From assembly GCF_006345805.1 (NCBI RefSeq), contig NC_043010.1, positions 23,312,001-23,376,000 of the forward strand: a stretch of DNA of 64,000 nucleotides. Reading direction: 5' to 3'. Source of the stretch: Octopus sinensis. Taxonomy: Eukaryota. Each line of letters begins with the position of its first letter. Position 1 is the stretch's first letter. Shown here one piece after another: positions 8,126-61,699 of the stretch. The notes below the pieces were generated by a model. It did not search any database. It worked only from the letters and a program-made list of their open reading frames with translations, and was not told the origin of the DNA. The position numbers and the translations under genes were made by a program.

Positions 8126-8948
8126 TTATTTCATATAAATTTGCCATAAAAGCATCACAAAGAGTAACTGCTGGCTGGACATATACATTGATAAGTTGAA
8201 TGATGAAATAAGGATGATATTGATGAGAGAAGGCAAAAACGCCCGCCGATTTTCTTCTTCTCTAAAACATTGTTCTTTTTTTTTTAAACAGAATTAACAA
8301 AGCGAGGTATTGAACCTCTCACAACAGTTTTTACAGTTTTTGGACTGTACAAATATTAACATGCAAAAAATATTCAATATACAATCAACACTAGTGCATT
8401 TACAAATGAGGCGCAGGGCCTCTTACACTTTATAACACTGAGGCTTTTCAACCTTTTATCAATTTAAAAAATCAAGGCGGGCTTCGAGTTGGCGTCACAC
8501 CACACACACACACACACACACACACACATATATATATATATATATATAATTTAAAAATAGGATAAAATCTTCATAAGAAATTATCAAGTAGTTAACGTGA
8601 AAAACATCATAAGAGAAAAAATCTGTTAATTTTTTCCACTTGAATATATTTATTTATATTATATAGAAGGCATTATTACACATAAATGCCGCACGCTAGG
8701 AGGGATTCTTAAAGTCAAAACTACCAAAATAAACATATCGTACCGAATGCAAGTCTCGAAGCAAGTCATTTAAAAACAGAATTTAGCTGCAAATCACCAG
8801 TGATTTCGTAATTACCGAAACGCAATTCGAAAAAGGCCGCCATTTACATAGATGTATGAGGGGTGAACCGTTCTATATGCTACGGTGGATACGATGGCTG
8901 TTCGTCTGGTATGTTGATTTTGTTCATTCATTATAAATCTTGAACCAT

Positions 8949-9013
8949 GCTTGCACCGATGAGTAAAGGGCGCAACCACTGCGCTGATTACGAAATCACT
9001 GGTGATCTGCAGC
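8949..9013 (+). ncRNA. Type I hammerhead ribozyme (CCGAUGA variant)
   Basis: gcttgca-CCGATGA-gtaa[agggcgcaaccactgcgctga]ttac-GAAA-tcactggtgaTC-tgcagc; stems I, II and III all pair. Confidence 0.75.
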
Positions 9014-9332
9014 TAAATTCTGTTTTTAAATTACTTGCTTCGAGACTTGCATTCGGTACGATGTTTATTTTGGTAGTTTTGACTAGCGTGCGGCATTTAT
9101 GTGTAATAATGCCCCCTATATAATATATATATACATACACACACACACACACACACACACACACACACACACACACATATATATATATATATTATATATA
9201 TATATATAATTCAAAAATATAAGGAATGGCCATAATAGGACATTCGACTCACTAGCAAGAGCAGCCAAACTCAAACCGCTAATAGTTGTAATTCTGAAAT
9301 TGAAAGAGAAATAAAAACGTTTACCCTTTCAA

Positions 9333-9425
9333 CTCTGGACTATGCATAGTTTCGGCAAACTTTAGTAAACAAATTAATTAAATTAAATTAAATTTATTTC
9401 CAACTGGCGTGCCTCGTCAGCAGAG
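9333..9425 (-). ncRNA. Type I hammerhead ribozyme with long stem II insertion
   Basis: ctctg-CTGACGA-ggca[52 nt]tgcc-GAAAC-tatgcata-GTC-cagag; palindromic stem III. Confidence 0.85.
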
Positions 9426-9991
9426 AAGCCAAGGACGAACATATATCCACGAGGCGATGGTAAGGAAGCCTCAAGTCTATATGCTATAAATTTTCAAAAT
9501 CTACCGCAATCGCGCGGTCAACTCAGCAGCAAATATAAACTGCTGATTTAATTTCAAAATTAGCCAAAAAATCATTAATTAATAAATATAAGGCTAGCAA
9601 AATATTCCAGAAAAAATTCTCCGCTACCAGCGGTCCGGTGAGAAGAAAAAGATAGTCAAAAATATAAGGAATGGCCATAATAGGACATTCGACTCATATT
9701 ATATAGTCTTTGACTATCTCTTCTTTCTCACCAGACCGCTGGTAGCGGAGAATTTTTTCTAGAATTTTTTGCTACCCATATATTTATTAATTATATACAT
9801 GTATATGTATACATATGTATATATATATATATATATATATATTATATATATATATATATATATATATATATATATATACATACATACATACATACATACA
9901 TATAAATATGTGTGTGTGTGTGTGACCGCGTGTGTATCGTTGGCGATTTTCTTTCTCTCTCTTCCCTTCCTTAGACTTTTCCTTTTCCTAT

Positions 9992-57502: not shown

Positions 57503-57914
57503 GGAAATATAAGCACGTCGGTCGGATGCTTTGCGGTCTTTGCTATGACTTCTTCCTTTCTGGGTTCAAAATTCACATCTCTTATTTAAGCGTCTATAGC
57601 TGTAGCGCAAGTGAAGTTAGGCCGAATGTAATGGCGTCTTCATGCATGTAGATAAATAACGACGTCTGACGAGAATCAGTGATGTCGTAATATAGGGATT
57701 CCCAGTCTCCTCACACTAGTGGACCAAGAATCGTATAAAGACACATTCGTCTGAACAGAGAAGTTATTCTCCAACGACGAAATACAACAGCGATTAGCAT
57801 ATTACAGTTCGAATCTGCTGTAACGTACAAAGAATGAAAATATACGTCATCACTGTGCGCAAGGCAATATATTACCGTATAGCGAAAATGCTACCGAGTT
57901 TTGTACTTTGTCTC

Positions 57915-58265
57915 AGGCACAGGCATAGCTGTGCGGTACGAAGATTGCTTCGCAACTAAATGGCTGCAAGTTCAGTCCCACTGCATGCCAATTGCGACAA
58001 GTGTCTTTTACTATGGCCTCAGGCCGACCAAAGTCTAGCGAGTGAATTTGTTTAGGCGGAGACTAAAAAAATCGTTTTCGTATAATTGTGTGTATGTGTG
58101 TGTGTTGGTTTACATACATCCCTGTAACATAGCGGTTCAACAAAGTTTCCGACAGAAAATGTATTGCACTTAAAAAGTTCAGAACAGGACTCAATTTGTT
58201 CGACTAAGTACTTGAAGGCCGTACCCCGGCATGGCCACATTCTAATACCTGAAGCAAGTAAGAGA
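57915..58265 (+). mobile_element. Diverged CORE-type SINE
   Basis: Recognisable head, CORE and tail. Confidence 0.7.
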
Positions 58266-59694
58266 TGAGATACCATACATGCAAGAACACACATACACAC
58301 ACACATATATACATACGCACACATACGGACATTAGCATATATATATATATATATATATATATATATATATGCTAATATATATATATATATATATATATAT
58401 ATACACACATATATATATATGTATATACATATATATATAATATTGAAATTATATAATGATTATTAATTTAATTATATTCTAATTAATCATTATGGTTACA
58501 TAATGATCTAATTAATTACATAACCGATTCGCGTATTACTTGCAAATCAGAAAGTCAGAAATACTTATGTTTTATCCTGTTACTCTACTACTACTACTAC
58601 TACTACTACTACTACTACTACTACTACTACTAATACTAATAATAATAATAATAATAATAATAATAATAATAATAATAATAATAATAATATAACATCCTGA
58701 AACAATACCAGGCAGTGGCTCTCATAACTTCTGATCTTATTTCATTGGAAGTGTTAGCATGTACATTGTTTTGTCTTGGTGTGAAAGATGGGCTACAGCA
58801 AATATTCTGCTCAATACCACAGATGTCCCTTAGTGATTGACAATTTGTGCATCAAGTTTTACAAGCTTGCTTCCCTACCATATGGTTCCGGGTTCAGTCC
58901 CACTGCGTGGCACATTGAACAAGTGTCTTCTACTATATCCTCGGGCTGACCAGAGTCATATGAGTGAATTTGGTAGACGGAAACTGAAGGAAGACCATCC
59001 GCGAATCGGGGACGTGCGATACAAGTATATATCGTATATATACAAGTATATATCGTATACAAGTTTATATTGTATATATCGATACAAGTATATATCGTGC
59101 ATGCGCCAGTCAGCTCGTAGGATCGACTGCCTACGTCTGGCTAGCGCAGACGCGCGTCTGCGCGTGTGCGCAAACCGGAACCAGTCTAACAGCATTAATG
59201 AGCGAAATTTTTTTTGCCTTCACAAATTGGCGTACACTTTCTCTAGATTTAAATAACATCTAATTCTTCTACCAGTAACCTTTTAGCATTCATCTACATA
59301 GGACTGTACTATTGGTTCTTACAATTTATAATTTATAACTTTTGTGTCTCCATGTATGTGTTCTATATTGACTATATATATATATATATATATATATATA
59401 TATATATATATATAATATATATATATATATATATATATAATACAAGGCACAAAAAGAAAATGACTCTCCCCAGACTGTCCCCCACCCCCATTGCTTGACA
59501 ACCGATGTTGGTGGTTTACGTCACCGTAACTTAACTTCAAATGCAGGATCTTTGTTTCAATTAATTTGAAAATAATATATAATTCTGAAGTTGGGGTTTG
59601 GAACATTAATTATTATGGAATTCCGATAGCTGTTCTAAAGTTATGTCACTTTAACCCTTTTGTTACCATATTTTTGTTGGAATACACTAAATTT

Positions 59695-59929
59695 ACATTA
59701 TTTACATTACTTACATTTGAATAATATTTGTCCTCATCTTCTTTGTTAACACAACGTTTCGACTGATATACCCTGCAGCTTTCATCAGGTGTCTTGGGGA
59801 AATTTCGAATCTGGGTGCTCATTCCTAATGCTGGAGAGTCTATCAGCCGAAACAACAAACAAGATGAGGACAAATATCCGTCAAATGTGATTAATGTATA
59901 TAATTCCTCATCTCTTAAATACAGAACTG
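59695..59929. mobile_element. 235-bp hammerhead-bearing fold-back insertion with 12-bp TSD
   Basis: TSD TACACTAAATTT at 59683-59694 and 59930-59941; inverted arms ~59705-59780 and ~59829-59900. Confidence 0.8.
59748..59793 (-). ncRNA. Minimal PLE-type hammerhead
   Basis: acac-CTGATGA-a-agctg[cagggtatat]cagtc-GAAACGTT-gtgt; base of stem II imperfect. Confidence 0.7.
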
Positions 59930-61699
59930 TACACTAAATTTGTTTCAATTTATTTTGAAGGTAATGAGTGATTTAGTAAAACAACTTTGCCAATCTTAAG
60001 CTGGGACTGAAGCATAAAATTAAAATGGAACTTTGATGGAAAGTTTAAATTTAGTTCACAATAAAACAGAAAGTTTTTATCATTGAATCAGGGACAGCAT
60101 TTACTTTTTATTTTCTGCTTAAAAAATTATAATTTATGGCGTTAGTTTGGAAAGGTCCTGCCTCTGTTGCTTACCCAGAGGACAAGTCTCCCTCACTCAG
60201 TAATCGGAAGTTTCTCGCATATGAATGGATATGTATGCTAGCATTTTCATAGATCAAAGATAGAACTACATCGATTGACCTTTAACACAACTGGAATATT
60301 AATTAAGTTTATTCAAAAATACTTGTAGTATATTATTACATACATACATGTGTGTGTGTGTGTGTGTGTGTGTGTGTGTGTGTATGTGTGTGTGTTTAGT
60401 TCTAGTGAACCAAACGCTTACATTAATTCTACTGCTCTCAAATTGATCTATATAAAATACAAAAAAAAAAGCAATTTTGTTTTGTGATCCCTCAAATGTC
60501 ATAAACAGAAATGGTAAAAAATTAACCGCAATGATGCAATTAGGTAAACCATCTGACATTAAAATTAGCTCAAATTTTGTTGTAAACCCCAAACGTGGAG
60601 TTGCTGTTTAATTCCCGGTGAATTCTGGTTCAGCAAAACAATTATTAAAGACGTTCAGTCTATAAGCGTCTCGTTTTGTTTTTCGTGGAGATGTAACATC
60701 TGTAGGACTTCATTAAGTCTTTCTACTTCAGGCACAAAACCCCGAAATGTTGTTGGGATGCGCAAGTCGATTATATCACCACACTCAGAGCTCAACACGT
60801 TCTTATTTTATCAAGCCGAAAAGAGGAAAAGTAAATTCGACCTCGGCAACAGGAATTCAAGACGTAAAACCGAGATAAATACCGCTAGACCAGCGCGGTA
60901 AGCAGTCTGCCTTGACTGCTCCTTGACTTAGGACTACCTTAATTAATTAAGGTCCTTCTTGTTATTTGGTCCTAGAACAACTTTGATTGAACAGACTTCT
61001 AATGAAAGGTATTCCAGCTTTTAGACTCCCTCTTTCATTGAAGCACAGTATCTCTAAATCTACATTATCCAATAAATTTGACAGTGTAATGTACTGGTTT
61101 CAGATTTTGCTACGAGGCCAGTAATTTCGGGGAAGGAAGTAGGTCGATTACATCGACTCCAGTATTTTACTGGTACTTATTTTATCGACCCCCAAAAGGA
61201 CGAAAGGCAAACTCGAGCTCGGTAGAATTTGAACTCAGAACGTGAAGAAAAATGAAATGGTGCTAAGCATTTTGGTCTACGTGCTAACGATTCTGCTTTT
61301 ACAGTTCCTTAGAAGCTAATATACTAAGGAACTGAATAGTTGGATCGTCGTTGGTGCTACCGACATGCACGTGGCGTGGTTTCGCTAAAGTTACAATGAA
61401 ACGTTGTAATCAGTTCAAATGTGGGAAAGTTCTTTGTTATAAACTAGCCAAAACCGGTGGATTTCAACCCGGAAGGAGCGTTTAATAAATGTTGGAATAA
61501 GTTTGATCGATGTTTCTCAAACAACACAAGGAAAAGAAAATTCCAATTTGACCAGGGGAGTACATTTAACAACAAATCTAAAACGTGTTTATTATTTACT
61601 TAAAAGGGCACCTATCATTTCACCTGACGTTTCGATACACGCATGCACACATACACAGATACATACGCACACACATACGCATACGCCTGCGCATTCAGT

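Follow-up and report, generated by a model that had tools for sequence, protein, structure and literature searches.

What produced the many hammerhead ribozyme motifs in one stretch of the genome of Octopus sinensis (RefSeq assembly GCF_006345805.1, contig NC_043010.1, positions 23,312,001 to 23,376,000)? A preliminary description of this stretch, the 64-kb window to which all layout, family and density results below apply, had proposed about 15 type I motifs in at least 11 unrelated families of short elements, mobilised by Penelope-like elements (PLEs) and able to release self-cleaved, possibly circular RNAs. The explanation that we consider probable is that nine complete and several decayed hammerheads lie in (TA)n-flanked products of many PLE families, most of them truncated 3' ends, along with three short units copied by PLE proteins. 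This explanation is built on the motifs, in which stem III is self-complementary, on flanking (TA)n, on a layout of inverted copies and partial tandems, on the three unit periods, and on a Hydra-clade PLE whose 3' end carries such a motif.

A type I descriptor that permits U4C and a stem II region of up to 100 nt identified nine zero-mismatch cores (C3 at +8956, -9420, +9996, -15219, -28878, +28990, -45649, -50784 and +51164), which reduce to seven independent insertions when inverted pairs are merged; U4C is present in three of the nine. Dinucleotide shuffles in 500-nt blocks contained a mean of 0.017 complete cores and at most one (60 shuffles), and the same scan of the reversed window found none, so that motif density is well above that of shuffled sequence. 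With one mismatch permitted there are 13 hits, versus a shuffle mean of 0.8 and a maximum of 3 (n = 25); they include +19209 (G12A) and +22402 (A6U), and the low-scoring hits at 7349 and 55283 look like chance. Twelve of 13 motifs have a (TA)4 run no more than 260 nt beyond the cleavage site, compared to 21% of 5000 random non-microsatellite positions, in agreement with the proposed setting of non-coding elements in (TA)n.

The window is AT-rich animal DNA with dense (TA)n and (CA)n runs, short interspersed elements (SINEs) and pieces of CR1/L2-type long interspersed elements (LINEs), and its motifs might be chance matches inside fold-back DNA repeats or repeats resembling miniature inverted-repeat transposable elements. 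Inverted repeats are many, and Rfam offers no hammerhead match: zero families reach the gathering score in the whole window, nothing is found at E <= 10 in 50520-51370 (element E15; Table 1), and hammerheads are absent from the best 150 of 198 window hits. Rfam and short-loop descriptors likely undercount such hammerheads because of their long helix II arms. With nine complete cores versus 0.017 in shuffles and none in the reversed window, unrelated stems around one conserved core, and one motif at the 3' end of a PLE, the chance reading is rejected as scarcely credible. The E15 motif as an exact pattern matched no locus in either viral or metagenome contigs.

The preliminary list of 16 coordinates was only partly borne out. 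The CUGANGA and GAAA boxes, an NUH site, three helices and both ends in stem I are found at nine (three with U4C), and two more have a single core mutation. Three are decayed (39161 also has a broken palindrome in addition to its core change; at 59748 the closing pairs of stem II are broken), 14181 is a half motif, and 34850 was rejected for want of a recognisable core. Two items can be added: a pair at +20677/-27676, in which both core boxes and ACAATTGT are present although stem II, a region of 79 nt, closes poorly, and half a motif at +50264. A loose search for half-sites, with 52 hits versus 25 in the reversed window, was too noisy for counting.

The families number 11 if decayed motifs are included and seven if a complete core is required. 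All-against-all BLAST of 19 elements found clear matches only between 9996 and 22402 (76% over 66 nt) and between 10158 and 11071, along with two more at E of about 0.01. Because these are the only clear relatives among the 19, the claim of diversity largely holds.

Stem III is self-complementary in all seven complete-core families, as the preliminary description had said of most, with predicted self-duplex energies of -1.7 to -15.9 kcal/mol, and folding gave no stable form of stem III as an isolated hairpin in any of the seven; 8956, 9420 and 45649 could form a 4-bp stem III as monomers. Between 15.1 and 16.1, motifs 9996, 22402 and 59788 have a palindrome of only four letters, ACGT. By their sequences, the window motifs are dimer-type hammerheads as described for PLEs (PMC4209133; reviewed in PMC6765202), with predicted cleavage. 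They share with the published minimal hammerheads of PLEs the type I topology, a short helix I, a palindromic 15.2-16.2/loop 3, many unrelated families per genome, a predominance of single copies, and pairs on opposite strands, which have been reported 100-700 bp apart (PMC4209133). Unlike the published motifs, in which helix II has 6-8 bp, three of the seven complete-core families (9420, 15219 and 28878/28990) have a folded helix II arm of 55-60 nt, the others being short, and U4C is present in two of the seven families. Helix II of E2 (9420), the PLE (15219) and E8 folds with z-scores of -2.2, -3.2 and -2.1, respectively (7, 1 and 5 of 200 shuffles equally good).

The Hydra clade of PLEs is marked by RWK-like and DKT motifs, a CxCX5C linker, a GIY-YIG endonuclease at the C-terminus and a (TA)n target (PMC8557442), and includes Hydra-1_Obim of Octopus bimaculoides, which has a 3' hammerhead (Craig et al. 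2021, PMC8557442). The PLE of the window, about 4.2 kb long with (TA)n at both ends and a 3' untranslated region (UTR) of about 1.1 kb, has the corresponding motifs in fragments (KWK, ADKT and the linker CNCRIKSKC). Its GIY-YIG domain is a weak match (E 0.066), and homologues align along the open reading frame (ORF); among 36 long homologues, DK[TS] is found in 36, CxCx5C in 33 and an RWK-type motif in 26. The predicted cut of its hammerhead is 38 nt from its 3' end, which upholds the proposed link between motifs and PLEs. Hydra hammerheads have a pseudo-palindromic stem III of 9-10 nt, such as ACAC-A-GTGT (PMC8557442), to be compared with ACAC-G-GTGT here. The Hydra clade and the PLE and elements of the window thus agree in their motifs, in an endonuclease at the C-terminus, in targeting (TA)n, in a 3' hammerhead whose stem III is pseudo-palindromic, and in the combination of partial tandem, inverted copy and tail. 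The differences are an ORF broken over several frames instead of a single intact one, a length above the general limit of 3 kb (listed elements reach about 3 kb), an Asn-rich insert, the long 3' UTR, and a long helix II versus a loop 2 of at most 10 nt in the tabulated Hydra hammerheads (PMC8557442). From its sequence, the element is read as a decayed, longer member of the clade. The insert (16750-17200, - strand) is a low-complexity stretch of about 150 codons between reverse transcriptase (RT) and linker; the best homologue, P0001, has a similar but shorter one.

The inverted partial tandem copy of this PLE (19202-19450) consists of the last 119 nt followed by 130 nt more, with a 37-nt overlap with the start of the main copy, and the template was therefore longer than one unit. 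A search with a profile built from 36 of 120 homologues (those of 690-820 amino acids) found no PLE coding remnants outside 16287-19118 in the window (best E about 1), and all-against-all BLAST found no sequence shared between the PLE and the short elements. Being broken and sharing no sequence with them, this PLE is not their shown mobiliser.

The insertions have the layout of PLE copies, which are described as 5' truncated, with partial tandems, inverted truncated copies and one-sided tails (PMC8557442). Partial tandem, inverted 5'-truncated copy, one-sided tail and microsatellite target are all found in E15, and some of the four in E1, E2, E8 and E13. E1, E8 and E16 are head-to-head inverted pairs, with unequal outer ends in E1 and E8, and E3 and E7 are single pieces; BLAST found no direct repeat in E1, E3, E7 or E8. 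The inverted copy of E1 begins inside stem II and extends about 110 nt further (8987-9125 versus 8812-8657, 86.5% alike). The inverted pairs are 75-88% paired as predicted long duplexes, as expected of the long double-stranded hairpins proposed earlier, and by analogy their fold-back form corresponds to the inverted, 5'-truncated copy that is ordinary in PLE insertions. For 12 of 13 motifs the outer end lies beyond the cleavage site, at a distance of 36-232 nt, and the shorter copy stops at what is an AT-rich patch in the longer one; thus the ends were not set by cleavage.

Three insertions have a short non-coding unit in partial tandem (longest ATG-initiated ORF 41-57 amino acids). In E2 (445 nt) the two X copies are identical (9656-9696 and 9211-9251), and the first ~85 nt of Y recur inverted at 9706-9793. 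In E13 (471 nt) the X copies are 82% identical over 44 nt and the predicted cut follows 45604. In E15 (365 nt) the inverted copy (51074-51369) begins 12 nt into Y, lacks the last 56 nt, and is 99% like the direct copy; both E15 hammerheads are complete and carry U4C, with ACACGGTGT. E2 and E15 thus agree in that the inverted copy begins where Y begins or no more than 12 nt from there. When each sequence was folded against 20 shuffles of its own, units as circles and other pieces as lines, the z-scores were -5.5 for E2, -2.1 for E13 and -5.6 for E15, compared with -2.15 to +0.8 for five other hammerhead pieces and +0.26 to +2.6 for five control stretches; folded linear, the E15 unit reached -6.6, with the hammerhead at the tip of a long rod. 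Covariation in this rod was inconsistent and is not claimed.

At least half of the E15 words are present in 12 of 24 listed sequencing runs, under five organism labels. Contigs of four runs were mapped to 50260-50886, a range that includes a flank (50260-50490) that is itself another repeat and not single-copy sequence. Run X3 has 1952 contigs on this range, flank repeat included, with identities from above 99% to below 90%, and two runs guessed to be RNA have 278 and 64 on the E15 unit, flank included, which is no evidence of expression. In three of the four runs (X3, X16 and X18) a variant lacks 50755, which makes stem III the perfect palindrome ACACGTGT. One 369-nt contig of X9, a run with a different organism label, spans the head-to-tail junction (50705-50886 followed by 50529-50708) and differs from E15 at ten sites in Y and one in X, which is modest support for a 365-nt family. 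The 365-nt unit of E15 belongs to a multi-copy, diverged family. Contig depth, which is higher over the 3' part of the E15 unit than over its 5' part, cannot rank the parts and was not used.

All of these pieces, the three units included, could instead be 5'-truncated ends of autonomous PLEs, the X-Y-X arrangements being one-off template jumps to the 3' end and no short family amplifying itself. PLE insertions are heavily 5' truncated, and most minimal hammerheads are read as truncated PLEs in the literature (PMC8557442, PMC4209133); E1, E3, E7 and E8, without direct repeats, conform to this. The absence of coding remnants from the short pieces is uninformative, because the 3' end of the PLE here is itself non-coding for about 1.1 kb. 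Three separate short periods, a Y start that E2 and E15 each share between their two orientations, whole units that fold strongly (the 3' 400 nt of the PLE has a z-score of only -1.25), and the recurrence of the junction in another run with a divergent Y are not what such truncation predicts, and for the whole set we regard it as improbable, if less so than any other alternative. The proposed status of short non-autonomous elements is supported for E2, E13 and E15 only: the other pieces are not distinguishable from 5'-truncated ends of long PLEs and likely are plain PLE 3' ends. Some short non-autonomous units likely exist; a comparison of the three with the one PLE in the window, as a candidate autonomous partner, found no 3' similarity.

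Retrozymes, which are tandems of at least two complete hammerheads that make circular RNA (Cervera and De la Pena 2020, PMC7229834), have been proposed as non-autonomous derivatives of PLE pseudo-long terminal repeats (pLTRs) (Li, Clavereau and Pollet 2026, bioRxiv 10.64898/2026.07.22.740005). Were the loci classical tandem non-LTR retrozymes, they would be transcribed and cut twice to yield abundant small circular RNAs. The 365-471-nt units and their self-paired folds resemble mussel (350-390 bp) and coral retrozymes (PMC7229834), which are units of about 150-450 nt with a highly self-paired fold; the fold is strong at 365 and 445 nt and weaker at 471 nt, and three motifs can close stem III as monomers. 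As in retrozymes, the units are non-coding and carry a type I hammerhead, and solo retrozyme monomers are read as offspring of active arrays. The tandem that serves the 2026 preprint as its working definition, at least two units that each carry a complete hammerhead on the same strand, is nevertheless absent from the window, as is any motif-bearing tandem array with a period of at least 40 nt; in type the motifs are minimal PLE hammerheads, several of them with a very long helix II, and the insertions lie in (TA)n with PLE-type inversions and tails. That these loci are themselves classical retrozymes is accordingly very unlikely. By analogy the short units resemble retrozyme monomers in their working and differ from retrozymes here in lacking the tandem. 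No locus in the window has two same-strand hammerheads of one family, hence unit circles would not be released in cis, and the proposal of self-cleaved or circular unit RNA from these loci is not sustained. The non-autonomous Chlamys PLEs of green algae, such as MRC1 (PMC8557442), are likewise short non-coding derivatives that form pLTRs and head-to-tail insertions, but unlike the window elements most lack canonical hammerheads.

According to the favoured explanation, copying by PLE proteins, source copies in tandem elsewhere would be transcribed, and their hammerheads would dimerise via stem III and cut out monomers, which might then be circularised. The GIY-YIG endonuclease would nick a (TA)n target, and RT would be primed on AU-rich patches of an RNA of more than unit length, tandem or circular, with frequent early stops; the AT-rich continuation at copy ends suggests that the nicked (TA)n target serves as primer. 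Priming on both target strands would give head-to-head copies with unequal outer ends. The copies in the window are likely dead-end offspring and not circle producers, because they have one motif per strand, no motif-bearing array, and inverted pairs that would bury the motif in double-stranded RNA.

Several observations weigh against this explanation. It is drawn from this one window, a base that covers neither the consensus ends and copy numbers of the families nor their tandem source arrays and parent PLEs, and the only PLE there shares no sequence with the short elements. The hammerhead fold is 1.0-10.3 kcal/mol above the minimum-energy fold in all seven motifs folded; U4C is a natural variant of lower activity in vitro (PMC3088659), and in the survey of the 2026 preprint one of nine dimer constructs cleaved and eight did not (10.64898/2026.07.22.740005). 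E13 is old, as its diverged X copies indicate, and weakly structured. The E15 junction was found in one contig of one of four runs, possibly a mosaic path or the same locus, and 50487-50528 was masked as repeat in the contig mapping, with no go-back joint listed. Membership in other PLE clades is possible for the three motifs of the ACGT type.

Table 1. Hammerhead-bearing elements, motifs and associated features of the window
Feature	Position	Strand	Description
E1	8548..9120	.	+ copy 8813-9117 head-to-head with inverted copy 8812-8548; (TA)n at both ends
E1 hammerhead, type I	8951..9012	+	CCGATGA core (U4C); stem III ATCACTGGTGAT; predicted cut after 9007
E2	9205..9795	-	Partial tandem X(41)-Y-X, period 445 nt, non-coding
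E2 hammerhead, type I	9333..9425	-	60-nt helix II; perfect palindrome ACTATGCATAGT; predicted cut after 9338
E3	9932..10125	+	Short piece; minimal hammerhead C3 9996, ACGT, weak 3-bp stem I; relative of E7
Half hammerhead	14181..14225	+	Stem II, GAAA, ACCGGT; CUGANGA box missing
Broken Hydra-clade PLE	15103..19450	-	RT and C-terminal GIY-YIG, about 19118-16350, several frames
PLE 3'-end hammerhead	15136..15224	-	60-nt helix II; ACAATTGT; predicted cut after 15141
Inverted copy of PLE hammerhead	19204..19292	+	G12A; 96% to 15100-15226
Decayed hammerhead	20670..20780	+	79-nt stem II region; ACAATTGT; twin 27573-27683 (-)
E7	22280..22532	+	Hammerhead with A6U (C3 22402); (TA)n at end
E8	28737..29285	.	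+ copy 28896-29285; inverted 5'-truncated copy 28895-28737 without last ~154 nt; both hammerheads complete (C3 -28878, +28990), 55-nt helix II, ACACGTGT
Decayed hammerhead	39155..39208	-	A13G; imperfect stem III
E13	45374..45888	-	Partial tandem X(~45)-Y-X, period 471 nt; complete hammerhead C3 45649, ATTGGACCAAT
Decayed U4C hammerhead	46380..46426	-	3' strand of stem I missing
Multi-copy repeat	50264..50486	+	Half hammerhead (ACCATTGGT) at start; (TA)n at end
E15	50522..51369	.	On -: X(189)-Y(176)-X(189), period 365 nt; C3 -50784 and +51164
Old inverted pair	59697..59904	.	69% alike; decayed minimal hammerhead C3 -59788, ACGT

Further observations concern repeats near the motifs. The decayed twins at 20670 and 27573 sit inside a 1.3-kb inverted duplication (20343-21627 and 26705-28009, 95.5% alike) that also contains an internal (TACA)n run and pieces of other repeats. 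Its copies face each other tail to tail with a LINE between them, each ending in (TA)n; they may have arisen by local duplication or as two insertions of a single long PLE 3' region. An old inverted pair at 10158-10315 and 11071-11184 (73-80%), with a SINE between its arms, has a conserved CTGAAGA box followed by GAATGAC and may be a decayed hammerhead family; its CUGAAGA...GAAUGAC was not counted as a hammerhead, as stem I is inconsistent. Fold-backs beside (TA)n lie at 38735-38855 and 39136-39252, the first without a visible hammerhead. The half-hammerhead sequence ACCATTGGT of the repeat 50264-50486 resembles the stem III listed for Hydra-1_Obim, and contigs of two runs have an opposite-strand joint at 50265/50315 in this repeat. 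In the supplement of PMC8557442, the octopus element Naiad_Ovul is marked 'HHR_half_core', its core halves being separated by 35-50 nt; hammerheads with a long helix II, like the ones in this window, might account for such cases.

Elsewhere, CR1/L2-type LINE copies at 23234-24900 (-) and 47070-49800 (+) are 95% alike over 1.3 kb, the second being nearly intact, and pieces of another LINE family lie at 29380-30250, 30330-31760 and 32405-33760. A LINE piece of the window matched no named sequence closely, its best hit in a named cephalopod being to Argonauta hians (62% over 57% of the query). A 1.7-kb direct duplication (1101-2793 and 2777-4480, 98.7% alike) and a 100-N gap (37728-37827) with duplicated flanks may be assembly artefacts. 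A 184-nt tandem unit with 2.6 copies each at 13286-13758 and 40573-41050 is a common dispersed repeat without a hammerhead.

Multi-family PLE hammerheads, opposite-strand pairs and PLE-derived retrozymes are already in print, and known PLE biology accounts for most of the set, the host being new; since the general picture has been published, the gain lies in the detail and the host. Its variant features are the 55-60-nt helix II arms, the U4C cores, and the three short structured units with PLE-type insertion. A 35-nt loop is on record for one plant PLE-X motif (PMC8557442). Five stem III motifs of the window are absent from the supplement of the same paper, and its sections on layout and the Hydra clade contain no non-autonomous Hydra units. 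The giant squid genome paper gives only 235 Rfam hammerheads (PMC6962438), the repeat annotation of O. vulgaris gives 31 recently active PLE families and, in its accessible text, does not mention ribozymes (PMC13282606), and the 2026 preprint describes a sample of 31 vertebrates and 4 invertebrates with no mollusc (10.64898/2026.07.22.740005). A search of the literature on cephalopod or octopus hammerheads and Penelope, with subscription papers mostly outside its reach, turned up the single Hydra-1_Obim motif and found no survey of such a population.

If the window is typical of the 2.8-Gb octopus genome, nine cores in 64 kb would correspond to several hundred thousand per genome. A bolder view, which we hold only tentatively and consider rather doubtful, is that this is among the densest animal hammerhead populations and that its mini-elements are reverse-transcribed from circular RNA by Hydra-clade PLE proteins, as a direct intermediate between PLE pLTRs and retrozymes. 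The role of hammerheads in PLEs is still open in the literature (PMC8557442), and a young 365-nt non-coding unit with the full PLE layout offers a small system for testing tandem or circular ribozyme-cut RNA as the PLE template. If the bolder view is true, the 365-470-nt mini-elements would be a natural test of the circular-template model of PLE transposition.

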